A stretch of DNA of 64,000 bases from assembly GCA_019058365.1 (NCBI GenBank), contig JAHPZE010000002.1:256001-320000 (forward strand). Reading direction: 5' to 3'. Below the pieces are notes generated by a model, which was not told the origin of the DNA, did not search any database, and saw only the letters and a program-made list of their open reading frames with translations. The first letter of the stretch is position 1. Each line of letters opens with the position of its first letter. This DNA is from Promethearchaeota archaeon. Its GTDB lineage: Archaea; Asgardarchaeota; Lokiarchaeia; Sigyniarchaeales; SOKP01. Positions 43,079-60,494 of this stretch are shown piece after piece. The position numbers were made by a program, and so were the translations under genes.

Positions 43079-43678
43079 ATGCTAGAATATAATCTTATTT
43101 CAAAAATAAGGGAATTCGCTATTGATAATTCTGAGAAAGATGATATTCATGGTTTCTTACATGTTGAGCGAGTCCTAAATTTATGTCTACAATTAGGTAA
43201 ACATTTAAACGCTAATTTATTGATACTTGAAATTGCAGCATTACTTCATGATATTGGCAGAAAATGTAAATATAATAAGATATATAGTAAGAATCATGCT
43301 GAATTATCAGCTGAGATGGCTTTTAAATTCTTAAACTCTTATGATTTTAAACTCTCTCAAGAAGATTTTGATAATATAATTCACTGTATTAGAACACATT
43401 CATTCTCAAATAATTCAACCCCTCAAACTCTTGAAGCAAAAATATTGTCTGATGCGGATAAATTGGATGCTCTTGGTGCAATAGGGTTATACCGGACAAT
43501 AGGATTTACCATAAAAAATAAAGGAAATCTTAATGATGTTATAAAACATTTAAGAGAAAAAATAATTAAATTGAAAGATATGTTATTACTTGATATTTCA
43601 AGAAAGATAGCTAGAAAAAGATACAAAATCGTGCTAGATTTTTATAAACAAATAAAAAATGAAGCAGATTTAGATTAA
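43079..43678 (+). CDS. HD-domain phosphohydrolase
   Basis: HGFLHVERV, LLHDIG and DADKLDALGAIG motifs. Confidence 0.9.
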   Translation: MLEYNLISKIREFAIDNSEKDDIHGFLHVERVLNLCLQLGKHLNANLLILEIAALLHDIGRKCKYNKIYSKNHAELSAEMAFKFLNSYDFKLSQEDFDNIIHCIRTHSFSNNSTPQTLEAKILSDADKLDALGAIGLYRTIGFTIKNKGNLNDVIKHLREKIIKLKDMLLLDISRKIARKRYKIVLDFYKQIKNEADLD

Positions 43679-43808: not shown

Positions 43809-45782
43809 ATGACTCATTTTAAAACTTATCCTTTTACTGCTATTGTAGGACAAGATCTTATGAAACTTGCGCTTATTCTAAACGCAATAAATCCAAAAAT
43901 TGGTGGACTCTTAATAAAAGGGACAAAAGGAACTGCAAAATCAACCGCTGTAAGAGCTTTAGCAGATTTACTTCCTGAAATTGAGATTATTAAAGATTGT
44001 CCATTTAATTGTAATCCATACGTTCTAAAAGAATCATGTCATGAATGCCAACATAAAATAATTGATAAAAAGTTGAAGAATACTGATATAGAATTTCGTA
44101 AAATGCGCGTTATTAATCTACCTATAAATGCCACTGAAGATAGAGTAGTAGGGACAATTGATATTAAAAAAGCACTGGAAGAAGGATTGAAAGCTTTAGA
44201 ACCGGGAATTTTAGCAGAAGCAAATAGAAATATTCTTTATATAGATGAAGTAAATCTACTTGCTGATAATGTGGCAGATGTATTATTGGATAGTGCGGCA
44301 ATGGGAATTAATAATATTGAACGAGAAGGTATTAGTATTCATCACCCTTCTAATTTTATCTTAGTAGGAACGATGAATCCTGAGGAAGGAAATCTGAGAC
44401 CTCAACTTTTAGATCGATTTGGATTAAGTGTGGAGGCAAAACCTATTTTAAATATCAATAAACGAGTTAAAATAATAAAATACGTTGAAGACTATCATTA
44501 TGATCCTCATAAATTTCACGATAAGTTCGAAACTAAACAAAAATTATTAAGAGAGAAGATTGTTAAGGCTCGTGAAATTCTTAATAAAGTTAAAATTTCA
44601 GATGAACAATTAGAAAACATTGCAAAATTATCTATTAAACTGGAAATTGATAGTCACCGTGCAGATATTACTATAAATATAACAGCAAAAACTATTGCTG
44701 CTTTTCATGGAAGAATCAACGTTTTAGATGAAGATATAAAAATAGCAGCAAGATTGGCATTAGCACATCGTTTAAGAAAACTTCCATTTGAAGAACAAGC
44801 AATAAATGAAGATGATATCGAAAAGATGTTTGAAGAACAAGATAAGGAAGAAGCACAGAAATTGAATATAAATAATCCAGAACATCGAAATAATAAAGAA
44901 ATTATAAATCTAAAAGAGGAAATTTTCGATATAGATACTAAGATATCTACAGATGGACTATTAGAAAAAAAAAGAATTGTAACAGATATGAACACCTCTG
45001 GTCAAAGAATATTACACCCTACTCGTGATAAAAAGGGGAAATATATTGGTGGTCAAAAACCCAAAGATTTTAATTTTAAATCGTCTTCGGATATTGCTAT
45101 TCTTGAAACTATTAATAAGGCCGCTTTAGAACCTGAAAATAAAAATGCTTTTAAAAATGGAGCAAAATTAGAAATTAAAAATGAACATATATATATTAAG
45201 AAAAGAATTGGAAAATCAAGCAATTTATTTATTTTCTGTGTTGACGCTTCAGGATCGATGGGAGCAAATGAAAGAATGATAACCGTTAAAGGAGTGATAT
45301 TTTCTATCCTTCAATCTAATTATGTATATCGCGATAAAGTCTCATTAGTTGTTTTTCGTGGAGACGATGCAGAAGTTATTTTACCTCCCACTCGAAGTAT
45401 TGATTTAGCATATAAATTATTAAAAGAAATACCTACAGGAGGTACAACACCACTAATTAAAGGGTTAGTAAAAGCATTAGATATTGCTCTTGAAGAGAAA
45501 AGAAAGAAAACAGGATATATACCCTTGATCATTCTTATTTCTGATGCCAGAGGAAATGTATTTTATAAGGACGCTATAGACGATTTAGTAAAAACTGGTA
45601 AAGAAATTTCTAAAAATCAAATTGATATGATTATTATTGATACAGAAGGCTTGGATGTCAAATTAGAAATTAATAAAAAATTATCTGAATCAGCAAATGC
45701 GAAGTATTATCATATTGATACCATGAATAAAGAAAAAGTAAATGAAATTCTGGGAATGGAAGGATTATTTGAAAATATCTAA
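43809..45782 (+). CDS. Class I chelatase AAA+ subunit fused to vWA (ChlI/ChlD-like)
   Basis: [27 protein letters not shown] and MNPEEG motifs; vWA VDASGSM. Confidence 0.9.
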
Positions 45783-45791
45783 TTGTGAATA

Positions 45792-48700
45792 TTGATTATG
45801 AATCAAAATATAGATAATACGAGAGATACACCTAAAATTACATTAATTACAGCTTCTGTTTTTTTGAAATGGTTAACCGAAGGTATTCACGAGATTTATA
45901 GTCAATTTGGAAGGTTATTCGATTTTAAAATTTTTTTTCTTAATGATTTGGACTCAGGAAAAATATCAAAAGAGGAAGTTCAAGAAGCTATTTATCAATC
46001 TAAAGTTATGTTAATTGATATCCGAGGAAATTCTCCTACAGTTGAACTATTGGTAAAATCTTATGAAGAAATGGAAAAAAATCAACCAGAATTATTTGAT
46101 ACCAAAGAAATAATAGCATTAGTGGGAGGGAATAGCGAAATAAGAGGTTTAACAAAAATGGGGCCCTTTCAAGCCCGAAAAATACCTTCTCCTCAAAATA
46201 GGGAGTATAATATCGATGAAATACCAGATTTAACGAAAGCAGTAAGATTTGGACAAAGAATGACTGAGTTTTTGAAATTTTTAGGAAAAGTATTCCCTTT
46301 TAAAGTATTAAGACATGCGCGCTATTGGGTCATAATGATGGATTACTGGGTACATGGATTGGGAGGTATCGCTGAGAATCATAAATACATGCTCCTGTTT
46401 CTTTTAAAGCACTATTTAGGATATAAGAATATTAAGGTTCCCAAACCAAAAAAGATACCCTCTTTTGGCATTTATGATCCTCAATTGAATGAATATTTTA
46501 ATAATACTGAAGATTATTTTAGAAAAAAGCCAATAGACCATAATAAACAAACTATAGGAATATTTTTTTATGGAGGATTATACTTTGAACAATCTTTACC
46601 TATAGTAAAAGAATTTATGAAAAATTTCTCAGAATTTAATACTCTTCCTGTTTTTTCTGATGTTTTAACAAATGTAGAAGCTTATCAAGAATTATTTTTT
46701 AAAGGTGGAGTAAAATTAATAAGCGCTGTTATTAATCTTCAATATTTTCAGTTAAATGGGGGTCCTTTTGGTGGAAATACCTATATAACAAGGGATTTAT
46801 TTAAAAAATTAGATATCCCACAATTTAATCCAATTATACAATATGATATGTCTTTTGAGGAATATACTAAATCAAATGAAGGGATTAACCCCATTAACCA
46901 AGTGATTGCAATTGCAATGCCCGAATTAGATGGAAGAATAGAAATGATTACTGTTGGCAGTCTTAAAAATTTAGGATATTCTGATGATTTAAAATCCAAT
47001 ATTTTAGAAGTACAACCAATAATTGAAAATGTTAAATTCTATGCTCAAATGGTTAAAAAATGGTTATATTTGAGACTAAAAGAAAATTCTGAGAAAAAAC
47101 TAGCAATTATTATTTATAACTATCCTCCTGGGGAAGATAAAATAGGTAATGCTGCATATTTAGATGTGTCTGAGTCAATCAAGAATTTAATAGAAAAATT
47201 AATTAAAGAAGGATACAATACAGAAAAAATCCCTGAAAACAAAAATTTAATGGATTTATTTATTGATTTTGGTGCTGTAAATACACCAAAATATATGAAG
47301 ATCCAAAAATATAATGGACATAAAGTCTCTTTACAAGTCTATCTTAAATTCTTTAAAAATCTTCCTTTACATCTCCAAGATGAAATTATTGAATATTGGG
47401 GACCTCCACCCGGTAAGATTATGGTAGACAATTCACATCTCAAATTACCCATTATTCAATTTGGTAATATATATATTTGTCTACAACCCTCCAGAAGTAA
47501 AGTATCTGGAGATCCTAATGAATATCATAACAAGAATTTACCCCCTCATCATCAATATTTCGCTTTTTATCGTTATTTAGAAAATATTTTAAATATAGAT
47601 GCCATAATTCATGTTGGAACTCATGGGACTGAAGAATTTCTTCCAGGCAAGGAATGTGCTGGTTGGATTTATGATTTTAATTTAAACTTAATTAGTAGTA
47701 TACCAAATATTTACTATTATCATATTACAAATACTAGTGAATCAGCTATCGCTAAAAGAAGAAGTAATGCGATTATTATTAATCATGCTGGACCTTCATT
47801 CAAAAACGCGGGATTGTATCAAGAATTTGCTCAGTTAGAGTTATTAATATCTGAATATCAAAATACCAACCTTTCTTTTAGCCTTAAAACCCAAAAGAAC
47901 AATAGAATCGATGATCTCGAAAAAGAAATTAAATATTTAGCAAAAAATATGAATATTGATTACGAACATATAGCAGAGTTGGAAGATAAATTATATAGAT
48001 ATAAAGCTTCTGTAATTCCCATGGGGCTTCACATATTAGGAAAATCTTATTCTTCTCAACAAAAATTTGATCTAATTCGAATGATTTTATTACACTCAAC
48101 TGAAAAACCGGATTATGTTGAAGAATTTCTGTCATATTTTAAGAACAAAGAAAAAATTGATGTAAAAAAGGTTAAAAATTACTTAGACACTTTTTTTAAG
48201 AGTAATGCAAATCAATTGTCTTTTGAAGATATAAATCAAAAGTTAGTATCTGAATATAGTATAAGTGAAGAAATAAATCAATTAACAATAAAATGGATAT
48301 TGTCTTTAAAAAACAGAATTGAAAATTCTCTTGAATTAGACAATATCATCCATGCTCTGGAAGGAGGATATATTGAGCCAGGATTAGGAGGGGATCCAAT
48401 CCGTTCTCCTCATATTTATCCAACTGGAAAAAATTCATATGGTTTTGATCCACGGCTAATACCTAATTCTACTGCAATAAAACGAGGAAATGAAATAGCA
48501 GAAAAATTAATTCAAAATTACAAAACTAATAATAATGAGTGGCCCGAAACTGTTAGTGTAGTACTATGGGCCTTTGAAACTATGAAAACTGGGGGAGAGA
48601 CTATTGGGCAAATTTTTAATTATTTAGGAGTTAAATCCGTTAAAAATAAATCCATTTGGACCACTGAATTAGAAATCATACCTTTAGAAGAAATGAATCA

Positions 48701-49595
48701 TCCGAGAATCAATGTGATTATTACAATTTGTGGTATCTTTCGAGATACATTCCCTTATCATCTAGAATTAATTAATAAAGCAATTGAATTAGTAGCAGAG
48801 CTAGATGAAGATATTGAAAATAATTTTGTAAAAAAATCGATGTTTACATTGAAACAGAAAGGAGTAGAGAATATCGAAGCACGTGTATTTGGTCCACCTC
48901 CAGGAAAATATAATACAAATTTAACAGAGATAATAGCAGCTGGAAAGTGGGATGATGAGACAGAATTGGCAGAAGATTACCTTAAAAATATGAGTTTTGC
49001 ATATATGAAGAACCAGAAAGTAAGACAATTAGAAAAGAATTTTAGATTAAATATTAATGAAATTAAATTAATGAGTCAAATAAGAGATTCGAGTGAATAT
49101 CAAATAACAGACTTAGATCACTACTATGAGTTTACTGGAGGATTAGCTCGTACATACAAACAAATTAATGGAAAAGACGCAAATGTTTATATAGCAGATT
49201 CTTCTAGTAAAGAAATTAAAATAAATACTTTAAGGGAAAGCATTAAAGAAGGCGCGATAACGCGTTCGTTGAATCCTAAATGGATTAATGGTTTATTAAA
49301 GCATAAGTATCATGGCGGTCAAAAAATAGCTGAAAGAGTAGAAAACTTTCTTGGCTTATCTGCTACAACTCATGAAGTAGATAACTGGATTTGGGATAAA
49401 GCATATAATCAATATATAGAAAACGAAGAATTGAGGGAACGTTTAAAGGATAATAACAGGTTTGCAATGATGGACATAATAAAAAATATGCTTCAAGCTA
49501 ATAACAGAGGTTATTGGGATGCTAATGAAGAACAAATAAATAATTTGAAAAAAATTTATCTTGAAATAGAAAATTGGGTTGAATTAAAGTACTAA
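45792..49595 (+). CDS. CobN/BchH-type chelatase large subunit
   Basis: AMPELDG, YNYPP, HVGTHG, PTGKN and LNPKWI motifs. Confidence 0.9.
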   Translation: MIMNQNIDNTRDTPKITLITASVFLKWLTEGIHEIYSQFGRLFDFKIFFLNDLDSGKISKEEVQEAIYQSKVMLIDIRGNSPTVELLVKSYEEMEKNQPELFDTKEIIALVGGNSEIRGLTKMGPFQARKIPSPQNREYNIDEIPDLTKAVRFGQRMTEFLKFLGKVFPFKVLRHARYWVIMMDYWVHGLGGIAENHKYMLLFLLKHYLGYKNIKVPKPKKIPSFGIYDPQLNEYFNNTEDYFRKKPIDHNKQTIGIFFYGGLYFEQSLPIVKEFMKNFSEFNTLPVFSDVLTNVEAYQELFFKGGVKLISAVINLQYFQLNGGPFGGNTYITRDLFKKLDIPQFNPIIQYDMSFEEYTKSNEGINPINQVIAIAMPELDGRIEMITVGSLKNLGYSDDLKSNILEVQPIIENVKFYAQMVKKWLYLRLKENSEKKLAIIIYNYPPGEDKIGNAAYLDVSESIKNLIEKLIKEGYNTEKIPENKNLMDLFIDFGAVNTPKYMKIQKYNGHKVSLQVYLKFFKNLPLHLQDEIIEYWGPPPGKIMVDNSHLKLPIIQFGNIYICLQPSRSKVSGDPNEYHNKNLPPHHQYFAFYRYLENILNIDAIIHVGTHGTEEFLPGKECAGWIYDFNLNLISSIPNIYYYHITNTSESAIAKRRSNAIIINHAGPSFKNAGLYQEFAQLELLISEYQNTNLSFSLKTQKNNRIDDLEKEIKYLAKNMNIDYEHIAELEDKLYRYKASVIPMGLHILGKSYSSQQKFDLIRMILLHSTEKPDYVEEFLSYFKNKEKIDVKKVKNYLDTFFKSNANQLSFEDINQKLVSEYSISEEINQLTIKWILSLKNRIENSLELDNIIHALEGGYIEPGLGGDPIRSPHIYPTGKNSYGFDPRLIPNSTAIKRGNEIAEKLIQNYKTNNNEWPETVSVVLWAFETMKTGGETIGQIFNYLGVKSVKNKSIWTTELEIIPLEEMNHPRINVIITICGIFRDTFPYHLELINKAIELVAELDEDIENNFVKKSMFTLKQKGVENIEARVFGPPPGKYNTNLTEIIAAGKWDDETELAEDYLKNMSFAYMKNQKVRQLEKNFRLNINEIKLMSQIRDSSEYQITDLDHYYEFTGGLARTYKQINGKDANVYIADSSSKEIKINTLRESIKEGAITRSLNPKWINGLLKHKYHGGQKIAERVENFLGLSATTHEVDNWIWDKAYNQYIENEELRERLKDNNRFAMMDIIKNMLQANNRGYWDANEEQINNLKKIYLEIENWVELKY

Positions 49596-49614: not shown

Positions 49615-50526
49615 TTATACTAAATGATGAAATTCTTCAGCATTAATAATGACTTCTTTTAAAATTTGAAAGTTTTTATCCTCTCCATGAATTAAAAATA
49701 TCTTATTTTTGATTGGAATTGCTGCTTCTTTTCCGATTAAAACCCATTCTTCTTTAATTAAATTTCTAACTATTGAACCTTCTTTAAATTTAATATAAAC
49801 TAATGCTCCTAAAAAACCATTAAATTTAGTTTCTTCAAGTTTCACATCTTCAAAGTCGGGAATTTCATTATTTTTACCTTCATTTTTAATCTCATATTCA
49901 GTTTTACTCAATAGCAAATTTAAATTAGCTTGAATTAAATTAATATCATTCTCTATATTTCTTTTATAATTGTACTCGAAAATGATAAGACCACATTCCT
50001 GTGTAAATGTTCCTTTATGACCTATCAGTTCATAATCATATACTATTCGACCTAAAGATTCTGAATGTTCGATAACTTCTGATTTTACTTTCCATCTCTT
50101 TGAAATAAGAGGTTCTATGTATTTTTGAGAACCAGGATGGATGGTATCAATCGTTAACTCTTTTTTTTCTTGATATAGTTTATCTAGAGTATCGCCAATA
50201 TACAACCTCTTTTGTTTTAGGTTCTCAATCTTTCCTTCCAGATTAACTAATATTTCATTAAAAATTTCCAAGGGGGGTTTAGCTATAAATTTCATCCTTC
50301 GAGGTTGTTTTCTTATTTCTAAAACCTCAATCCAACCTTTATCACTCAGTTTTTCTAATATTCCATATAATGTTGTTCGTGCAATTTGAAGATTATATTT
50401 TAATCTTCCTACCATATCGCCATTGTGCCCTCTTTCAACTAATGCTAAATAGACTATAGCTTCGTCAGCAGTTAAACCAAAATCTTGTAAATCTTGAATA
50501 TATATTTCTTTTTCCTTATCTTTCAT
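49615..50526 (-). CDS. TrmB-like HTH regulator; paralog of the C-terminal part of the gene at 54346
   Basis: LQDFGLTADEAIVYLAL...ARTTLYGILEKLSDKGWI HTH; shared CGLIIFEYN C-terminal domain. Confidence 0.8.
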   Translation of the reverse strand: MKDKEKEIYIQDLQDFGLTADEAIVYLALVERGHNGDMVGRLKYNLQIARTTLYGILEKLSDKGWIEVLEIRKQPRRMKFIAKPPLEIFNEILVNLEGKIENLKQKRLYIGDTLDKLYQEKKELTIDTIHPGSQKYIEPLISKRWKVKSEVIEHSESLGRIVYDYELIGHKGTFTQECGLIIFEYNYKRNIENDINLIQANLNLLLSKTEYEIKNEGKNNEIPDFEDVKLEETKFNGFLGALVYIKFKEGSIVRNLIKEEWVLIGKEAAIPIKNKIFLIHGEDKNFQILKEVIINAEEFHHLV

Positions 50527-50580
50527 ACTTTTTCATAAATTATATAATAATTAATTAACATTTTTTATTATATAAATATG

Positions 50581-50600
50581 TTGTCGAGAAAGGACGACAA
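50581..50600. promoter_or_regulatory. Palindromic operator candidate TTGTCG-N8-CGACAA
   Basis: Perfect 6-bp arms in the divergent promoter between the TrmB-like gene and the methyltransferase; same core as the site at 57089. Confidence 0.6.
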
Positions 50601-50664
50601 TAAGAATTTATTTAAATAGAATTCTTATTTTTGTTTATTTAGATAATTTAAAAATTGAAATAAG

Positions 50665-51366
50665 ATGATAATTGTGAGTAAAAGTAAAAAAATATGTGAA
50701 AGAATCCCTGAGGGTGAAGCAATATTAGATCAGATTGACTTCACAACAGAAGAATATAGTGAAGCATGCAGAAAAATGGAAGGAGAATATCGGCGTTTGA
50801 TAAATTTCATATTTAAAAAACTTGATATTAAAGAAAATTCAAAAATTTTAGAGATCGGGCCAGGACCAGGATGGATTGGAATTATGATGGCAAAACAAGA
50901 TCCTTCACTGACAATAATTGGAATTGAACTTTCTAAAGATATGATGCGTGTAGCTAATAAAAACATAAGAAAGGAAGATATTGATGATCGAATTTCTTAT
51001 ATTCACGGAAATGCTGAAAATATGTATCAATTTTTAGATAATACATTCGATGTTGTTTTTGGAAATGGTACCCTTCATCATTGGGAAAATCCTATAAATG
51101 TATTTAATGAGATTTTTAGAGTTCTGAAACCAGATGGTGTTTTTTGTATTTCTGATGGTCGACGAGATATAAGATTAGGAGCAAAAGTAATTTTTCATAC
51201 AATGAAATGGTTTATCCCTAAATTTATGAGAATTGGTTGGAAAACTTCAATAAATGCGGGATACACACCCGAAGAATTAACAGAAATATTAGATCAATCA
51301 AATCTAAAAGAAAATTATGAATTAAAAGCTGATCTTTTTGATATATTAGTTTATAATAAAACTTAA
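50665..51366 (+). CDS. Class I SAM-dependent methyltransferase
   Basis: ILEIGPGPG and RVLKPDG motifs. Confidence 0.9.
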   Translation: MIIVSKSKKICERIPEGEAILDQIDFTTEEYSEACRKMEGEYRRLINFIFKKLDIKENSKILEIGPGPGWIGIMMAKQDPSLTIIGIELSKDMMRVANKNIRKEDIDDRISYIHGNAENMYQFLDNTFDVVFGNGTLHHWENPINVFNEIFRVLKPDGVFCISDGRRDIRLGAKVIFHTMKWFIPKFMRIGWKTSINAGYTPEELTEILDQSNLKENYELKADLFDILVYNKT

Positions 51367-51386
51367 TATAAGAAAGGGAAGAATTA

Positions 51387-51854
51387 ATGCCACAAATTGC
51401 AAAGGGAGGAAAATATTTATTTGGATGGTCAAGAGTAGGAAATCAAGGTAAAATTAACATTCCTCCCGAAGCTTTTAATGAGTATAATTTAAAACTGGAT
51501 AAATATGCCATCTTATTTTCAGGTAGTAAAACTTCAGGTGGATTTGGATTAAGTTCTGTGAGGATTTTAAAAAATTCCATCATGAAAGAATTAATAGACA
51601 AATATACTTCACTAGCCAATTATAAGATACCTGAGGGAGAGGTTATCGAATTTAAAAATAAAAAATACTGTTGGGTAGCAATCCAAAAAGATAGAAGTAT
51701 AAATCTATCAGAAAAGACTTTAAATGCGTTTGGAATTAAGAAAAACGATAATTTGCTCTCCGGAAGAGGTAGCCATTTAGCTATCGGATTTATCGCAAAA
51801 GGACCAATATTTAAAGAAGCAAAAAAATATCCTGAAATTGAATTTTTTGAATGA
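51387..51854 (+). CDS. Duplicated AbrB-like (swapped-hairpin) protein
   Basis: VGNQGKINIPPEAFNEYNL and a second repeat INLSEKTLNAFGIKKND. Confidence 0.6.
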   Translation: MPQIAKGGKYLFGWSRVGNQGKINIPPEAFNEYNLKLDKYAILFSGSKTSGGFGLSSVRILKNSIMKELIDKYTSLANYKIPEGEVIEFKNKKYCWVAIQKDRSINLSEKTLNAFGIKKNDNLLSGRGSHLAIGFIAKGPIFKEAKKYPEIEFFE

Positions 51855-51886
51855 AGATAGTCGTTATATTTAAATAGTATGATTCG

Positions 51887-51924
51887 TATGATCATATTAA
51901 TATGATCATACCTATATGATCATA
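51887..51924. repeat. Three perfect TATGATCATA palindromes with a 14-bp period; putative operator array
   Basis: Copies at 51887, 51901 and 51915, with degenerate copies at 51878 and 51929, directly upstream of the AbrB gene. Confidence 0.8.
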
Positions 51925-51943
51925 TCAATATGAATCTTAAAAG

Positions 51944-52402
51944 GTGATTAAAATAACTGAATTTCCTGGTAAAAAAGGAAAATATTTTTTTGGCTCAGTA
52001 AAGGTTGGGGAACGCGGTCAAATTGTTATTCCCCTTAAAGCTAGAGAAGTTTTTGGAATTGAAGCTAAAGATGAAGTATATATTGCTGGAGAATTAAATA
52101 AAGGATTAGGTTTAGCTAAAAGTTTGGATATCGATATAAAAGAGTTAGAAAAACATGAACATTATTTTGGTACTGCTAAAGTTGGTGAGCGAGGACAGAT
52201 TGTTATTCCACAAGAAGCTCGAGAAATCTTTAAAATAAACTCTGGAGATTTAATCCTAATATTTGGAGATATTAAAAAAGGAATTGCCTTTACGAAAGCA
52301 ACAAAATTGAAAAATTTTGCTATAAAGCTATTTCAATCATTCTTAGGAGGCTTCGAGGATATTCAGGAAAACAATAGAGGTGATTTTAATGAAGAAGAAT
52401 AA
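51944..52402 (+). CDS. AbrB/MazE-family regulator with two tandem domains
   Basis: KVGERGQIVIP motif occurs twice. Confidence 0.9.
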   Translation: MIKITEFPGKKGKYFFGSVKVGERGQIVIPLKAREVFGIEAKDEVYIAGELNKGLGLAKSLDIDIKELEKHEHYFGTAKVGERGQIVIPQEAREIFKINSGDLILIFGDIKKGIAFTKATKLKNFAIKLFQSFLGGFEDIQENNRGDFNEEE

Positions 52403-52922
52403 AAATCAATCAAATATTGATTTTAGATTTATGTCATTTTTCTTTAAAATTCGTGATAAAATTCACCCTCCTATAGAAAAAATTATAAAAGCCAACATTA
52501 AACAAGGAGATATAGTTTTAGATTATGGTTGCGGATCAGGAAGTTATTCAATAGCTGCTGTTGAGATAGTAGGATCAAATGGGAAAATTTTTGCTGCAGA
52601 TATTCATCCATTAGCATTGGAGAAAGTCAGAAAAAAAGCTGAAAAAAAAGGTTGTACTAATATTGAAACAATTCAAACCGATTGTGCTACTGGATTAGAT
52701 AATGAATATATTGATAAAGTAATTTGTTTTGATGTATTTCATGACATCCCTCATAAAAATGATCTATTAAAAGAATTTCATCGAGTTTTAAAATCAAAAT
52801 CAATACTTTCCTTTGATGATCATCATATGAATGAAGATGAGATAATAGATTGCATCACTTCCAAAGGGCTCTTTAAATTAGTTGAAAAGAAGGATCAACA
52901 ATATAATTTTATTAAAATCTAG
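52389..52922 (+). CDS. Class I SAM-dependent methyltransferase
   Basis: VLDYGCGSG and EFHRVLK motifs. Confidence 0.88.
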   Translation: MKKNKNQSNIDFRFMSFFFKIRDKIHPPIEKIIKANIKQGDIVLDYGCGSGSYSIAAVEIVGSNGKIFAADIHPLALEKVRKKAEKKGCTNIETIQTDCATGLDNEYIDKVICFDVFHDIPHKNDLLKEFHRVLKSKSILSFDDHHMNEDEIIDCITSKGLFKLVEKKDQQYNFIKI

Positions 52923-53705
52923 GTGGAAACAAAAATGGAAGATAAACCTAAATATGGATGGTATGTGAAGGATCTAATTATTGGATTCAATATCATAGGA
53001 TTAATAGGATTATCTGCTTTTATTTACGGATTTTTAATAGACGGTATAGCACAAATATTTCTAATAATTTCAGGATTAGCTGTTGTTTTGGTATTTTTAT
53101 GGCCAGGTATCGGAATGATAATACTGAATCTATATTTATTACGAAAAATACCTAAAATAGATTTAATTGCTAGAATGAAAGCATTAGATGAAATAAGTAA
53201 TCCACAGATTTTAGATGTTGGATGTGGAACTGGAAGAACAGCAATTAAGATTGCTAAGGCATTAAAAAATGGAGGACATTTATTTGGAATTGATATTTAT
53301 TCGAAAATGGCAATTTCAGGAAACAGTTTAGATACTGTACAAAATAATGCTATAGTTGAAAAAGTGGAAGAAAGAACTACGTTTAAAAATGGTTCTGCTA
53401 TAGACATCCCTTTTGAAAACAATAGTTTCGATATTGTTAATGTTTCTTCAGTACTCCATGAAATACATGATCCAAACGGGCAAGATAAAGCAATGAAAGA
53501 GCTTTATCGAGTTTTAAAACCGGGTGGATATCTTTACTTGAGTGAATGGAACCGAACGTCATGGCAATTAATAGCATTTAGTGGGTTGTGTTGCTTTGTT
53601 TTTAAGCATAAGGATTACTGGGAGAAATTACTCAAAGAAAATAAATTTAAGAATATAATATATGAGAACATCACAGGTTTTGGAATTTTTACCGTAAGAA
53701 AATAA
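52923..53705 (+). CDS. Membrane-anchored class I SAM-dependent methyltransferase
   Basis: Two N-terminal TMs; ILDVGCGTG and RVLKPGG motifs. Confidence 0.88.
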   Translation: METKMEDKPKYGWYVKDLIIGFNIIGLIGLSAFIYGFLIDGIAQIFLIISGLAVVLVFLWPGIGMIILNLYLLRKIPKIDLIARMKALDEISNPQILDVGCGTGRTAIKIAKALKNGGHLFGIDIYSKMAISGNSLDTVQNNAIVEKVEERTTFKNGSAIDIPFENNSFDIVNVSSVLHEIHDPNGQDKAMKELYRVLKPGGYLYLSEWNRTSWQLIAFSGLCCFVFKHKDYWEKLLKENKFKNIIYENITGFGIFTVRK

Positions 53706-53712
53706 ATTTTTT

Positions 53713-54255
53713 TTATTCTATTTTTTTATTTTTAAAAATAATACCTTCTTCAATCCAACTCCAATGTAACATTGGTCGTCTAAATTCTCCTTCAAATTCA
53801 AAACTAGATTTTTTTATCTGTTCTTGGACTTTATTTAATTGAATTCCATAAGAACCTATATGAGTAGCATGATAAGATAAAAATCCGGATTTATCTTTTA
53901 AAACTCGATGTATTTCATTTAATAATTTGATTCTATCTTCTTTATCGAGTAAATGATACACATCATACATTAACACAACATCTATAAAATTGTTCTTCAA
54001 TGGAATCGATATTTTTTTCAAAGTCTTTATGATTTCAATATTCTTAATATTTTGAGACTTAATTTTATTAGATAATTCCTCTAAATGATCTTCATCGTAA
54101 TCAAGAGCATAAATTTTACCAGTATTTCCTATAATTCGCGAAGCAATTATTGAATATACTCCTGTTCCACATCCAAAATCTAAGATTTTTTGTCCACTTT
54201 TAATTCCAAATTCTCTAAGTATGCTTTCTCCCTTTGAATTTAACCATTCTTCCAT
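53713..54255 (-). CDS. Class I SAM-dependent methyltransferase
   Basis: ILDFGCGTG and EIHRVLK motifs. Confidence 0.88.
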   Translation of the reverse strand: MEEWLNSKGESILREFGIKSGQKILDFGCGTGVYSIIASRIIGNTGKIYALDYDEDHLEELSNKIKSQNIKNIEIIKTLKKISIPLKNNFIDVVLMYDVYHLLDKEDRIKLLNEIHRVLKDKSGFLSYHATHIGSYGIQLNKVQEQIKKSSFEFEGEFRRPMLHWSWIEEGIIFKNKKIE

Positions 54256-54345: not shown

Positions 54346-55596
54346 TTAAAGTTTTAAGATAATACTCAATAAAATTGGAAATTGTTCTTCAGAACCCCAA
54401 ACGACATAGATTTTATTTTGAATAGGAACAGCTACATGCCTAGCTGCTACAATCCAATCCAATCCAACATTATTTCCCGTCTCAGTTCCTTCTTTAAATT
54501 TAAAATACATTGTCATTCCTAAATAATCTTGAATTTTTATATCCTCAATTTTAATATCTTCAAGATCAAGAATCGTAAATTCTTTTATATCAAGATCGGG
54601 TTGTATTGGTTCTCTCATTTTTTCTGAAGAAAGTTGTAATGCTGCTCTGATAATAACTTCTTCCTTTACTTTTTTATTATATTCAAAAATAATAAGACCA
54701 CAATCTTTTTCCTTTCCCGTTATTCCAAGGGTGTTAAAATCAAACGATTTTTTGCTGTATAATTGAAAATCTTTCTTTATTTCTGAGATATCCATCCATC
54801 CATTCTCAAGCGTCTCACCCATTATATACCGAAAACTCTTTAAAATTTTTAATTCCTCTTCTTTTTGTTGAATTCTTTCATCAAATATGCTTGTTAAGGG
54901 TCTTGCTACAAAATATTGTGCACTTTTTGGTAATAATGGCAATTTTATTATCCATTCTTTGCTAATTAAACGATCAATAATACGATAGATAGTTGTTCTT
55001 TTAATGGATAAATCTTCATCTAACTCACCTACTTTTGCCCCTTTATTCCCCTTTCTTAGCAAAGCTAAATAAACTTTGGCCTCTTCAATACTCAACCCAA
55101 ATTTAAGTAATCCAAGCTCTTGCAAATTATTTGTATCATCAAGAAGTATTCTTGGAGTTGCCCATTTTAATTCTTCTACTTTTCCTAACTGGGCATCTAA
55201 ATCCATATAAGGCTTTTTTGAACTTAAATTGTGTAATGTTCGAGATGCTTCCATCATTCCGAGTCGCATTATTCCATCTGGAGCAATTTTACAAATAATC
55301 TTCCTCTCTTCATCTTTAAAACCTAAAATTCTTCCTTTTTGAATAGGATCTATCCCAATCAATCTTTCAGGAGTACACTGTATTATTACGTATTTAATAT
55401 CTGAAATTGTAAGATAAGTATGCTTCATTAATTTCCAAACCGAGATAATTTCATCAATATCTTCGCTAATATTCCAATTCTCTGTTGAATATTCTATTTC
55501 TCTATCTCCTTTAATTATTGCGGCTGAAATTGTTTTTGATTCAGATTCTATGAGTTTATTTAGAGCATATTTTACCTTTTCCATATTTAGCTTCAT
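54346..55596 (-). CDS. Profilin-like domain fused to a TrmB-like HTH regulator
   Basis: The N-terminal ~125 aa carry Asgard-profilin hallmarks (AAII..D..I.YSTENWNIS, IKYVIIQCTPERLIG...KGRILG). These are followed by FGLSIEEAKVYLAL...RTTIYRIIDRLISKEWI and the CGLIIFEYN domain. Confidence 0.72.
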   Translation of the reverse strand: MKLNMEKVKYALNKLIESESKTISAAIIKGDREIEYSTENWNISEDIDEIISVWKLMKHTYLTISDIKYVIIQCTPERLIGIDPIQKGRILGFKDEERKIICKIAPDGIMRLGMMEASRTLHNLSSKKPYMDLDAQLGKVEELKWATPRILLDDTNNLQELGLLKFGLSIEEAKVYLALLRKGNKGAKVGELDEDLSIKRTTIYRIIDRLISKEWIIKLPLLPKSAQYFVARPLTSIFDERIQQKEEELKILKSFRYIMGETLENGWMDISEIKKDFQLYSKKSFDFNTLGITGKEKDCGLIIFEYNKKVKEEVIIRAALQLSSEKMREPIQPDLDIKEFTILDLEDIKIEDIKIQDYLGMTMYFKFKEGTETGNNVGLDWIVAARHVAVPIQNKIYVVWGSEEQFPILLSIILKL

Positions 55597-55643
55597 CTTC
55601 TCTTTTTATATTAAGTTAAAAAAAAAAAATATTTTACAATTAG

Positions 55644-55850
55644 TTATTTTTCTCCAAATTTTTTTTTTATTTCATCTAATACCTTTTTAAAATAGCTTTT
55701 TTCTTTAGATTCCTGAATTTCTATAAAATAGTCAGGCACGATTAATTTCTTAGATTCTCTTTTTATCTCTACGTCTATCCAAATTATCCCATCATCCAAC
55801 ACGATACAAGGTATACCTTCCAAAAGTTTTATTCGTGTCATTTTCATCAC
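55644..55850 (-). CDS. Small hypothetical protein downstream of actin
   Basis: 68-aa ORF starting 27 bp after the actin stop on the same strand. Confidence 0.55.
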   Translation of the reverse strand: MMKMTRIKLLEGIPCIVLDDGIIWIDVEIKRESKKLIVPDYFIEIQESKEKSYFKKVLDEIKKKFGEK

Positions 55851-55877
55851 TTTTAATTAATTTTTAATTGAAAGAGT

Positions 55878-57023
55878 TTAAAAACATCGATGGATAACTT
55901 GAGGCCCCATCTCCTTGTATTCTCTTCGAGTAATCCACATTCTATGAAATGTTTTTAAGGAACTTAAGATAGATCCTCCTATCCACACAGAATACATTCT
56001 TTCTGGAGGAGCGATTATCTTTACATCTATAGATTCAGCAACTTGTTCCTTTATTTCTCGAGTTAGACGTTCTTTAATTCCCGGAAACATTGTAGAACCA
56101 CCTGAAAGGACAATATTACTATAAAGATCTCTTCGTAAATCTACATCGCATTCAGAAATTGCTCCTACTACTACATCATCTAAAGGAGCTAATTCCTTAC
56201 CAACCACAGAAGGATTAAATAAGCACTCTGGAGCTAAGAATCTTTCAATCCCTATTGTAATTGTTTCACCATCTGGAAGCATGAAATTCTTTGCCATACC
56301 AGCTACTTTATTTGAAAGTAAAATCTCTTTTTCAGGTTCAATAGCAACATAGCAAAGTTTTTCTTTTATTTCTCTTACAATCTGTTTTTCTGCAGAAGTA
56401 TAAAATGAGTATCCATTTTGCCTTAATAATCTTTGTAAGTACGTTGTAACATCCCTTCCAGCAAGATCAATTCGCTCTATTGCATGGCTTAATGCAAATC
56501 CCTCAAAAATTGGTACAATATGTGCTACTCCATCCCCTATATCTACTACACATCCAGTAGTTCGACCAGAAGCGTAAAGTGATAAGACTGCTTGTGTTGC
56601 GATATAAAGAGCAGGAACATTGAATGTCTCGAACATTATTTCGGCCATTTTTTCTCTATTCGATCTTGGATTTAAAGGAGCTTCTGTTAATAACACTGGA
56701 AATTCTGAAGGATCGATTCTTAGATCAGTATAGAATGTATAATGATATATTCTTTCCATTGCTGGCCAATCCTCAACGACTCCATGTTCAATAGGAAACT
56801 GTAAATTCATTATTCCTTTTAATTCCATAGCTTCCTCACCAATATACCACTCACGGCTATAATCCTTTACATCAGGCATAATATTTCCATATTTTGGTTT
56901 ACCGATAACAGTAGGGAATACTGAACGAGGTTGATCTTCTCCTCCAAATCCATTTTTTGATATCCCTGTCCCATTATCTATAACAATTGCTCTATTTTTT
57001 CTAAAATCCCCGTTGACTGAAAT
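55878..57023 (-). CDS. Actin (Lokiactin-type), about 381 aa, probable ATT start
   Basis: The frame extends 48 codons upstream of the track ATG and includes IVIDNGTGISKNGFGGEDQPRSVFPTVIG. LLTEAPLNP, LYASGRTTG, LSGGSTMFPG and APPERMYSVWIGGSILSSL are also present. GAGGTGG precedes the ATT, and an in-frame stop lies at 57042-57044. Confidence 0.93.
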   Translation of the reverse strand: MSVNGDFRKNRAIVIDNGTGISKNGFGGEDQPRSVFPTVIGKPKYGNIMPDVKDYSREWYIGEEAMELKGIMNLQFPIEHGVVEDWPAMERIYHYTFYTDLRIDPSEFPVLLTEAPLNPRSNREKMAEIMFETFNVPALYIATQAVLSLYASGRTTGCVVDIGDGVAHIVPIFEGFALSHAIERIDLAGRDVTTYLQRLLRQNGYSFYTSAEKQIVREIKEKLCYVAIEPEKEILLSNKVAGMAKNFMLPDGETITIGIERFLAPECLFNPSVVGKELAPLDDVVVGAISECDVDLRRDLYSNIVLSGGSTMFPGIKERLTREIKEQVAESIDVKIIAPPERMYSVWIGGSILSSLKTFHRMWITRREYKEMGPQVIHRCF

Positions 57024-57088
57024 TTTAAAACCACCTCTTTTTTATTTTATTGTTTTATAGATAGAATGAAAATCATAATATTTAAAAC

Positions 57089-57108
57089 TTGTCACATAAT
57101 GGTGACAA
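57089..57108. promoter_or_regulatory. Palindromic operator candidate TTGTCAC-N6-GTGACAA upstream of actin
   Basis: Perfect 7-bp arms, 20 bp long like the site at 50581, next to a TATA-like box. Confidence 0.6.
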
Positions 57109-57638: not shown

Positions 57639-60494
57639 TTATTCCAATTTTTTTTGAGCGAAACTAATATTTTTCTTAATAGAAGTTGCTAAGGGTGAAT
57701 CATTAAACTCGATTTCCTCTAAGAAATTCATAGCAATATTGAATTTATCTAGAGCTTCTTGGTATTTTCCTTGTTTAAAATATATTAACCCGATTCTATT
57801 GTTATATTTAGATTTTTTTGTTTTTTGTATTTTTTCTTCTAATTCGTCAGAAATCTTTAATGCTTTTTCATATAATTTTATCGCTTCAACTTGATTCCCT
57901 AATTTGTTATTCATATTAGCAATATTACTCAAATCAGTGGCAGTTTCAGCTAAATCACCAAGAATCTCATGAACCTTCATTAATTTATCAAAATATTCCA
58001 AAGCTGCTTGAAATTCTTTTTGTTTTTCATATGTTTTTGAAAGACTATTAAGGAGTATAACTTGCCATTCAAGATTCTCTAATTTTTCACTAATTTCTAA
58101 TGCTTCTTTCCATTTTTCAATAGCAATTAAAGGATTTCCAATGGTATTATTAATTAGTCCAATTGTATTAAGACATAAAGCTTTATCAGGAAGGTTATTA
58201 TATTTTGTATATATTTCAAGAGCCTTTTCGTATGAACCTAATGCTTCATCATAATTTTCTAAGCCAGTATATAGCTGTCCAATCGCATTTAAAGTAGTGG
58301 CCTTTTCTAGGTGATTTTCTATTTTTTCAGTAATTTCTAATGAATTTTTATAATATTCTAGTGCTTTCGTATGATCTCCTTGAACTCTATAACTATTACC
58401 TATATTATTCATAATAATAGAAATTGATAATTGATTTCCCAATTGCTCAAATATTTCTGTAGCTTCTTTATAATACTCTATCGCATCAGAAAAGTTTTCT
58501 TGCCTTTCAAAAACTGTACCAATGTTGTTTAATGATACAGCAATGTCGGGTAGATTTTTTAACTTTTTATTTAATTCAAGTCCCTTTTTATACCAGTTTA
58601 GAGCTTCTGTGTACATTTCTTGATCAAAATATACACCACCAATATTGCAATACACTGCAGCTTTATCAGCCTCTATCTTTAGTTTTTCTTTAATTTCAAG
58701 AGATTGATGATATATTTCTAAAGATTTTTCGAACTTTTTGAGATGTTGATAAACTAATGCCAAATTATTTAGACTAATAGCCTTACTTGTCAAATTCCCA
58801 ACTCTTTCAGTTAATTCAAGCGCTTTTTCAAACCATTTTAAAGCTTCATAGTCATCTCCGAGATCAAAATGTATTAAACCTATATTGTTGTATGATACTG
58901 CTATTCCTGGAAAGTTAGCTAATTGTTCATCAATTGCCAGAGAATCAAGGTAATATTTTAGAGCTATGTTAATATCACCTTTGTCATAATAGAGGCTTCC
59001 AATATCGTTTAAGCATTTTGATTTTGCTGAAAGATCTCCAACTTTTTCAGTTAATTTTAGAGCAGTTTGATATTTTTTTAGTGACTCATCAAATTCTCCT
59101 AAATTTTGAAGAGTATTCCCCATATTAATTAAATATATACCTTTCCTTTGATCATCCTGCAAATTTTCTGCAATTTTCAAAGCATGTTCATAGCTTTTTA
59201 AGGCTTCATCATATTTACCCTGTTCTTCATAAATCTTTCCAATATTTGCATAGCTCCCTGGCTTTTCTGACGCTAAACCTAGCTCTTCATCAATTTGAAT
59301 AGATTCATGATATTTTTCTAAAGCTTCTTCGTAATTACTTTGATTATAATTGATAAATCCAATGTTACTTAATATCACTGATTTGTTTTCTAAATCGCCT
59401 GTATTAGATGAAATCTCAATCATTTCTTTCGCACATCTCATTGCATCATCATACATACCTAAATCAAGATATATCTTATGAGGTATAAAGTATTTCGTAA
59501 ATTTACTCGGTTTGTCAATATTAATTTTTAGCCATTCTAACGGATTCACTTCAGAATCATTATGATTAATAGGAGGTTTAGTTTTCATCATTTCTTTTAT
59601 TAATCGAGATGTATTTACATCAACTCTATATATATGTTCAGCAAAATCCATTCGCTTAATATCTGCAAGAATTTGATTTACTTTGCTTATAGTATCATAA
59701 TTTTTCAATGTCTCTTCGTCAATTTCAAAAATGTGAGCTTTATTTGCATCATCTTTAATATAATTTATCCAGATAACGTTTTTAATGTTTTTAAGTGCTT
59801 TTATAGTTGGAACGACATCAAAATCGTCACTTCCAGAATAACCCATAATTATAAATGAACGGTTTTTTGAGATATTTTCGAATAGATCCCGTTTAAATAG
59901 CTCGACTTGAAAAACATTCACCCCTTCTTTATTTGAGCCAAATGCTTGAATTGTAGCAACCAATGTATTACTAGTATCTTCACCTTTTATTAGATTTTTC
60001 TTTGAACCATGGATTTTATAAAGAGTTTTCAATCCTCTTGCATAAAGATTTTCAGGGTCATTGTATTTTTCAAAATTCTTTTGAGTTATAATTATCTTTA
60101 ATTCCTCTTTAGGAATCCCAATCTGGAGTAATGCATGTTCTATTAAAAAATCAAAATTAGTTGTCATTACAAAATTGCCGTTATTTATCATCTCAGCGAG
60201 AAAAAAGTGTTGAATATTTGGATTTTCACATTCTCCATAATAATCAATAATTTTCAAATCATCATCTATATTATCTCGCACTATTTCAACTAATGCTTCA
60301 AATCTTAGATTCTCTAATCGAGATATTTTTTCTACCTCCGATTCAACACAGGTATATTGAATGATTGCATCCATCATTGGACGTCCAGCTGGTAATCTTG
60401 AAGGAGCATCTACAGAACACCCCGCACCAACAAGAAATGTAAGTTTTTGGTCTTTCCCAATTAGTTCATTTATTGAGAAATTTACTTCTTCCAT
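57639..60494 (-). CDS. SIR2-like (SIR2_2) domain fused to a long TPR array
   Basis: FLVGAGCS, TTNFD, KIHGS and GYSGSDDFD motifs, followed by many ~40-aa TPR repeats (LNNIG...Y..AL). Confidence 0.88.
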   Translation of the reverse strand: MEEVNFSINELIGKDQKLTFLVGAGCSVDAPSRLPAGRPMMDAIIQYTCVESEVEKISRLENLRFEALVEIVRDNIDDDLKIIDYYGECENPNIQHFFLAEMINNGNFVMTTNFDFLIEHALLQIGIPKEELKIIITQKNFEKYNDPENLYARGLKTLYKIHGSKKNLIKGEDTSNTLVATIQAFGSNKEGVNVFQVELFKRDLFENISKNRSFIIMGYSGSDDFDVVPTIKALKNIKNVIWINYIKDDANKAHIFEIDEETLKNYDTISKVNQILADIKRMDFAEHIYRVDVNTSRLIKEMMKTKPPINHNDSEVNPLEWLKINIDKPSKFTKYFIPHKIYLDLGMYDDAMRCAKEMIEISSNTGDLENKSVILSNIGFINYNQSNYEEALEKYHESIQIDEELGLASEKPGSYANIGKIYEEQGKYDEALKSYEHALKIAENLQDDQRKGIYLINMGNTLQNLGEFDESLKKYQTALKLTEKVGDLSAKSKCLNDIGSLYYDKGDINIALKYYLDSLAIDEQLANFPGIAVSYNNIGLIHFDLGDDYEALKWFEKALELTERVGNLTSKAISLNNLALVYQHLKKFEKSLEIYHQSLEIKEKLKIEADKAAVYCNIGGVYFDQEMYTEALNWYKKGLELNKKLKNLPDIAVSLNNIGTVFERQENFSDAIEYYKEATEIFEQLGNQLSISIIMNNIGNSYRVQGDHTKALEYYKNSLEITEKIENHLEKATTLNAIGQLYTGLENYDEALGSYEKALEIYTKYNNLPDKALCLNTIGLINNTIGNPLIAIEKWKEALEISEKLENLEWQVILLNSLSKTYEKQKEFQAALEYFDKLMKVHEILGDLAETATDLSNIANMNNKLGNQVEAIKLYEKALKISDELEEKIQKTKKSKYNNRIGLIYFKQGKYQEALDKFNIAMNFLEEIEFNDSPLATSIKKNISFAQKKLE

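Follow-up and report, generated by a model that had tools for sequence, protein, structure and literature searches.

The stretch of DNA analysed here, hereafter the window, covers 64,000 nucleotides of contig JAHPZE010000002.1 (positions 256,001 to 320,000) from the Promethearchaeota archaeon assembly GCA_019058365.1. It was found to contain a second Lokiactin-like actin gene, here called actin-2, followed on the same strand by the gene of a regulator that fuses an Asgard-type profilin domain to a TrmB-type winged helix-turn-helix (HTH) and a C-terminal domain (CTD), with a palindromic candidate operator on the actin-2 promoter. An autoregulated one-component circuit, in which the regulator would sense actin and control a spare actin gene, is the best explanation overall and is given slightly better than even odds. 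The source genome is of Lokiarchaeia type (4.74 Mb, 29.5% GC). The cassette lies on the chromosome in DNA of uniform GC, on a 331-kb contig in which neither a Cdc6 gene nor an integrase gene was found. The original prediction, made from the letters of the sequence, had described an actin, a 68-residue open reading frame (ORF68) and a 416-residue protein as co-oriented, and all three were observed on the minus strand among the following parts.

57089–57108, unstranded: operator palindrome TTGTCAC-N6-GTGACAA, its promoter-proximal arm over the position of the TFB recognition element (BRE)
57079–57086, minus: TATA box (TTTAAATA), 2 nt past the end of the palindrome; spacing of 2–3 nt in nearly all homologous loci
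57031–57037, minus: Shine-Dalgarno-like GAGGTGG, 7 nt ahead of the ATT codon
55878–57023, minus: actin-2, second Lokiactin-like actin, 381 aa, with an inferred ATT start; subdomain 2 and DNase I-binding loop (D-loop) remodelled, profilin face and nucleotide pocket retained
55644–55850, minus: ORF68, 68-aa protein with a conserved IDGIPCI-like motif and a C-terminal helix; optional member
55618–55629, minus: run of 12 T ahead of the regulator gene, probable leaky terminator
54346–55596, minus: profilin–winged HTH–CTD fusion regulator, 416 aa (412 from Met5)
55213–55584, minus: profilin domain, residues 5–128, derived from the extended-profilin subfamily
54820–55116, minus: TrmB-type winged HTH (161–232) and dimerisation helix (233–259), with a near-invariant recognition helix KRTTIYRI
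54352–54705, minus: CTD (298–415), confidently modelled, with weak PsbP/Mog1/DcrB-like resemblance

Linkage of the fusion gene with an actin gene

More than 100 near-full-length homologs of the fusion were recovered. The fusion is confined to the family of the source genome, where about one genome in three has it, spread over four genera, and a phylum-wide search gave no fusion-length frame among the strong matches outside this family. The NCBI labels Odinarchaeota, Hodarchaeota and Hermodarchaeota carried by homologs are misleading, two such contigs position-matching genomes that GTDB places in the genus of the source genome. Of 46 fusion loci, 44 have an actin gene directly upstream and in the same orientation, down to 37% identity of the fusion, with other neighbours varying; such counts describe conservation and are not a P value, because related genomes are not independent and significance would be overstated. 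The linkage of actin with profilin-TrmB, noted in the original prediction, is conserved in this sense within four genera of one family. At least two Lokiactin-like genes were present in 37 of the 45 fusion genomes versus 3 of 116 others, and the genome with two fusions holds three. Two genomes (G102 and G126) retain only a C-terminal remnant of the fusion and have neither an adjacent actin nor an exact operator in the genome; in G102, actin, operator and profilin part were lost together. The linked actin has diverged to 61% identity at one locus (L055:1673-2719, genome G156), where the operator is degenerate.

The candidate operator and the promoter

The palindrome at 57089–57108 had gone unmentioned in the original prediction. 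With up to three mismatches allowed, it was found in 41 of 42 linked-promoter rows (a few genomes being counted twice), at short and long leaders alike, versus 0 of 21 main-Lokiactin rows. A weight matrix scan gave a single strong operator in the genome (score 26.6, next 15.0), and the exact form TTGTC-N10-GACAA occurs in the genome only at the operator, at the site of a profilin-less paralog described below and at one other position. The exact operator core was present in 33 of 45 fusion genomes versus 5 of 116 others, in all five of them away from any actin; since 26 of the 33 core-bearing fusion genomes are without the profilin-less paralog, the operator follows the fusion. Homologous promoters carry 2–7 half-sites per locus, over up to four positions and with an 11-bp phase, the additional ones lying upstream, although one palindrome is usual; the phasing suggests cooperative binding. 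The RTT[IL]Y recognition helix is common to the fusion and the profilin-less paralog family, and the helix does not vary even at sites reading TGTCGC. Binding of the fusion to the palindrome at the actin-2 operon promoter is thus strongly inferred from sequence, and the actin-2 operon is almost certainly its only predicted target.

The last two adenines of the proximal operator arm coincide with the expected position of the BRE adenines (PMC4158304). Regulators that occupy the promoter itself keep out TFB or TBP, and TFB-RF1, which binds just upstream of the BRE, activates (PMC5937170). With its proximal arm on the BRE, an occupied operator would most likely block TFB and cause repression; the fusion is therefore a probable repressor of the actin-2 promoter, with activation of the TFB-RF1 type as the alternative. 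The proposal that the 416-residue protein is a DNA-binding regulator was in this way extended beyond the first reading by a predicted operator on the actin-2 promoter; no such site was found on the main Lokiactin promoter.

Downstream, between ORF68 and the regulator gene, the T-run noted at about 55618–55629 is where it had been placed, with 12 T residues. Runs of this length were found in 0.3%, and runs of 9 T in 4%, of 310 comparable co-oriented gaps genome-wide, and the run is conserved in homologous loci with a median of 9, in keeping with a probable leaky terminator. ORF68 was present in 19 of 31 loci, evolves with a ratio of nonsynonymous to synonymous rates (dN/dS) of 0.30, and gave no usable match in an ESM Atlas feature search.

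Domains of the fusion regulator

The N-terminus had been read as an Asgard profilin from short motifs, and both sequence and fold agree with that reading. The first 125 residues match four solved Asgard profilins (5yed, 5zzb, 5zza and 7pbh) with phmmer E values of 1.5e-7, for 5yed, to 1e-4. The AlphaFold model, with a predicted local distance difference test score (pLDDT) of 70–88 over residues 1–130, is that of a profilin, and the non-profilin fold that would have spoken against the idea was not seen. Fold matching (VIA) placed the Odin profilin first (Z 19.2, root-mean-square deviation (rmsd) 2.1, 118 residues aligned), with the Loki profilin at Z 17.8 and Roadblock at 12.9, and Foldseek retrieved 5zza at E 9e-9. 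Pfam PF00235 gave no match on the fusion and stays below threshold even for the stand-alone profilins of the genome. The profilin part is closest to the extended profilins of the same genome, with which it has a PY-x-D...G tail in common.

Modelled together, actin-2 and the profilin domain meet at the canonical barbed-end site with a score of 0.63, the best control scoring 0.00; contacts agree between runs to at least 91% and partner pLDDT is at least 80; the score mark was calibrated as reached by 58 of 80 solved pairs and by 2 of 110 mismatched pairs. The pairing with the adjacent actin therefore passes its controls, yet it resembles solved profilin–actin pairs and the pass may reflect learned structures because like complexes are solved (5yee, 5zza and 5zzb), so that likeness is shown and not binding. 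Purifying selection acts on the domain (dN/dS 0.25, and 0.23 at the interface). Fold, selection and complex model together make it reasonably likely that the profilin domain binds actin.

The remainder of the protein had been described as a TrmB-like HTH plus a C-terminal domain, and this composition stands. The HTH was matched by Pfam PF01978 at residues 163–219 (E 1e-10, 41.7 bits against a cut-off of 25.6), the dimer helix occupies residues 234–259 in the AlphaFold model (233–259 in the feature list above), and the winged HTH with its helix has structural matches to TrmBL2 (Z 10.9) and AbfR2. Most homologs begin at Met5. No match to PF11495, the TrmB sugar/effector-binding family, was obtained on residues 220–416 at E up to 1, the NCBIfam TrmBL1 model was unmatched by the fusion, and the modelled CTD differs from the TrmB sugar-binding domain. 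Fold searches with the CTD were topped by members of the PsbP/Mog1/DcrB group, which are weak matches (Z 5–6, rmsd 4–5, Foldseek E 0.003 or weaker), an ESM Atlas feature search with it gave no usable match, and VapS gave a weak sequence match to the fusion (E 0.1). No RPEL or MADS-box Pfam domain was found in the fusion protein.

The second actin

Actin-2 is 84% identical to the main Lokiactin of the genome (G000:C39:111968-113110, contig C39); the genome also has four more distant actin homologs. A quick tree sets the linked actins apart from every main Lokiactin, those of another family among them (Shimodaira–Hasegawa-like approximate likelihood-ratio test 99), and the idea of a dedicated actin paralog is borne out by this separate clade. 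Identity within the linked actins is 84%, compared with 98% within the main Lokiactins, and selection on actin-2 is strongly purifying (dN/dS 0.05). The changes concentrate in the D-loop (55% equal to the main protein) and the next strand (52%), with T50P, E53K and E46G as examples in full-length numbering, and the D-loop is almost unchanged in the main Lokiactins of another family. The nucleotide site is 96% conserved and the modelled profilin face is 91% equal to that of the main Lokiactin (dN/dS 0.04). GC content at third codon positions is below that of the main gene. Actin-2 therefore departs from the Lokiactin type, which is single, near-invariant and highly expressed, as a more variable second copy.

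The frame contains no ATG, GTG or TTG ahead of the first motif of actin-2. Initiation at ATT (57021–57023, minus strand) is most likely, because the GAGGTGG element precedes it, the resulting length of 381 residues is like that of the main actin, and ATG or TTG is aligned at this codon in other loci; ATT is kept in about half of the loci. Gene callers would shorten actin-2 by 48 residues owing to this start. A different tandem duplicate of the main Lokiactin (L080:5244-6350, genome G103) is 93% identical to it, has altered phosphate-loop residues and is without fusion or operator.

The profilin-less family and the origin of the cassette

A paralog without the profilin domain had been noted at 49615–50526 of the window, and it proved real, with 33% identity over HTH and CTD, which upholds the modularity of the profilin domain.

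49615–50526, minus: profilin-less relative, winged HTH and the same CTD, a member of the parent regulator family
50581–50600, unstranded: related palindrome TTGTC-N10-GACAA, between the profilin-less regulator and a divergent methyltransferase gene (50665–51366)

In this family the palindrome precedes the regulator gene in 20 of 20 loci against a background of 0.3%, and the gene usually faces a divergent S-adenosylmethionine (SAM) methyltransferase; genomes that lack the fusion show this too. In the window this conserved unit of regulator and methyltransferase spans 49615–51366, and it makes up a predicted Lokiarchaeia regulon that is undescribed. The fusions form one clade among the profilin-less regulators (midpoint root), and a likely history is that a regulator of methyltransferase genes gained a profilin and that its site came to control a duplicated actin. 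The cassette is a derived, family-level invention and not an ancestor of MRTF-SRF. A convergent gene for an HD hydrolase is often found downstream of both regulator types; the HD-domain phosphohydrolase of the window (43097–43663, plus strand) has homologs convergent to both types in many genomes.

Proposed circuit and competing explanations

In the proposed circuit, the fusion would dimerise through the helix after the winged HTH and bind the palindrome at the operon of actin-2, optional ORF68 and regulator, where occupancy of the proximal arm would block TFB. The profilin domain would grip the barbed-end face common to actin-2 and the main Lokiactin, and because this predicted face is common to both, free monomer of either actin could alter operator occupancy. 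The simplest logic would be negative feedback, ample monomer keeping actin-2 off and a drop in monomer turning it on, with the ATT start and the T-run holding actin-2 and regulator at low levels. As it has its own D-loop, actin-2 probably forms a polymer of its own or changes that of the main actin, and the inherited CTD may read a second, small-molecule signal. That transcription is controlled by actin at all is about an even call or marginally better. The fuller claim is put at even chances: actin monomer would bind directly, as ligand, to a transcription factor in charge of a specialised actin gene, and the circuit would have arisen independently of MRTF-SRF by the joining of a profilin, a regulator of methyltransferase genes and a Lokiactin duplicate.

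Several observations, in addition to the relatedness of the genomes mentioned above, weigh against this circuit. The fusion of genome G049 has no adjacent actin, and beside that of G110 just half of an actin gene is present. Within the fusion, conservation is lowest in the profilin domain (45% versus 62–65%), where constraint is about twofold weaker than in the stand-alone extended profilin of these genomes (dN/dS 0.25, against 0.12); the interface columns of the domain are no better conserved than its remainder and reach a conservation of 0.38 versus 0.68 in the stand-alone protein, and a conserved interface Gly is mostly Leu in the fusions. Conservation of the profilin face of actin-2 could also serve other profilins or gelsolins (permutation p about 0.07). 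Alternatively, the fusion may be a plain regulator of its operon whose profilin is decaying or has been repurposed; it would bind the palindrome but take its signal through the CTD, as in the parent regulators of methyltransferase genes, or through lipid binding at the profilin surface, with actin-2 as an unsensed, stress-induced isoform. This appears unlikely, although it is favoured by the far stronger constraint on HTH, linker and CTD (dN/dS 0.09–0.11 versus 0.25 for the profilin), by a parent family that works without profilin beside methyltransferases, by the binding of phosphoinositides by Asgard profilins (PMC8410842), and by a profilin-less row (P0139) that nests among the fusions and may be a fragment. 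It sits poorly with a domain kept at full length throughout 45 genomes from four genera and still under purifying selection, with modelled-interface residues Q73, E77, R78 and D95 that match the stand-alone profilin, and with the coincidence of profilin gain and actin-target gain in one clade.

ParR and TubR repress their promoters as a side function, and a comparable tether may be imagined in which the fusion, as an adaptor on phased sites, holds the barbed end of an actin-2 filament and positions or segregates the DNA locus. The gene order of NTPase then DNA-binding adaptor, the site on the promoter, the phased half-sites, the single site per genome, the private D-loop suggestive of a separate filament and the patchy distribution all speak for it; it is nevertheless quite improbable, as the array is short and usually one palindrome, the locus is chromosomal with the uniform GC and gene content given above, the same site type serves methyltransferase regulators that have no actin, and the cassette is missing from about two thirds of the family. 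A backup actin resistant to some toxin or viral effector and guarded by the fusion would suit a fast-evolving duplicate in a variable, methyltransferase-rich region, and an actin drug is known to arrest Asgard cell dynamics (10.1101/2025.11.30.690169). The changes in actin-2, however, cluster in subdomain 2, outside the barbed-end cleft and the nucleotide pocket, purifying selection on it is strong, and no notable defence-family match was obtained, the PADLOC matches being generic HTH or HD, so that this reading is very unlikely. Least credible is a global actin-pool sensor like MRTF-SRF acting on the main Lokiactin and other cytoskeletal genes: the common profilin-binding face would allow the main pool as input, but the main Lokiactin promoter rows lack the operator and the genome has no second strong site.

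Comparison with known systems

In eukaryotes, MRTF-SRF provides actin feedback through RPEL motifs and a MADS-box partner. The likeness to it that had been suggested survives in outline only: the proposed logic, by analogy, ties a module that binds actin monomer to the transcription of an actin gene, but the parts are unrelated (profilin versus RPEL, winged HTH versus MADS box), and the cassette has one protein, one genomic target site that is not at the main Lokiactin promoter, no nucleus and an origin within one family. ParMRC and TubZRC comprise the gene of a polymerising NTPase, then a DNA-binding protein able to touch the NTPase, and phased promoter sites, the ParMRC centromere having about ten phased iterons and the complex of adaptor and DNA stabilising the ends of filaments. 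Gene order and phased promoter sites are the same in the cassette, which differs in its eukaryote-like actin, profilin adaptor, short array of 2–7 half-sites and chromosomal location.

With Asgard profilins the fusion has in common the fold (Z 14–19), 26–31% identity to Loki and Odin proteins and the modelled barbed-end site; it differs in being joined to a DNA-binding domain and encoded beside actin, in its faster evolution and in having no Loki-loop insertion. Characterised Asgard profilins bind monomeric actin, slow its nucleation in vitro and respond to phosphoinositides. The section of PMC8410842 that surveys 256 sequences describes N-terminal extensions only. TrmB, TrmBL1/Tgr, TrmBL2 and TFB-RF1 have the same PF01978 winged HTH with dimer helix and a palindrome at BRE/TATA, and TFB-RF1, too, has its gene downstream within the operon that it targets (PMC5937170). 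The operator resembles the Thermococcales glycolytic motif (TGM) TATCAC-N5-GTGATA, with a spacer of 6 and not 5 (PMC4158304); absence of the sugar-binding domain, another CTD, the N-terminal profilin and an actin-gene target set the fusion apart from the TrmB family. Relative to Lokiactin (PMC9834061), actin-2 keeps the overall sequence and nucleotide site at the identities given above, and differs in its own clade, much greater variability, fixed D-loop changes, non-ATG start in many genomes and operator. Cultured L. ossiferum has one Lokiactin and three ARP-like homologues (PMC9834061), and Asgard profilins and gelsolins are described as regulators of polymerisation with one Lokiactin per cultured genome (PMC9834061, PMC13716822, PMC8410842).

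A literature search, with subscription papers outside its coverage, returned no description of a profilin fused to a DNA-binding (TrmB/HTH) domain, nor of one in connection with MRTF or actin duplication. The fusion is thus a new variant of one-component regulator, and if actin is its ligand, the circuit is of a kind undescribed in prokaryotes. For the tuning of the Asgard actin cytoskeleton, descriptions so far cover just gelsolins and profilins that act on polymerisation. If true, the circuit would represent actin isoform specialisation and a convergent actin-to-gene feedback in a prokaryote; as a late invention of one family, it says little about the eukaryotic ancestor. Since protein, 20-bp site and actin isoform are all named, control of transcription by actin state without a nucleus becomes a question for the bench.

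Other profilin proteins and neighbouring genes

A second profilin fusion was observed in the same genome (G000:C16:240376-241680; L084:1077-2381, plus strand), a 435-aa protein of profilin and an LCM/TIGR00027-type SAM methyltransferase; the C-terminus of actin falls within the profilin site. About 16 genomes of the class, some of them from two other families, have this fusion at full length, and it is not tied to the actin cassette. Because one genome fuses profilin to a methyltransferase as well, the profilin domain may have a broader role in Lokiarchaeia as an input that responds to actin. The extended profilins G000:C35:120061-120693 (211 aa) and C21:99445-100107 (221 aa) have a common C-terminal helical domain of about 65 aa, and the C35 type was present in 31 of 33 genomes tested.

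Directly 3' of the fusion, on the same strand, many loci carry a gene for a 188-aa CxxC-motif protein (L010:9238-9801, plus strand), which is missing in the source genome and gave no NCBIfam match. Between the two regulators of the window (50665–54255) lie four class I SAM methyltransferases and AbrB/MazE-like genes, of which 51944–52402 was assigned by Pfam and 51387–51854 by weak similarity to it. The gene at 57639–60494 on the minus strand encodes a protein of 951 aa whose N-terminus is SIR2-like and which has TPR repeats (PADLOC matches weak); a paralog lies on contig C21 near an extended profilin. At 43809–49595, on the plus strand, a chelatase ATPase–vWA gene is followed by a CobN/BchH-like large subunit, both recognised by sequence motifs only.

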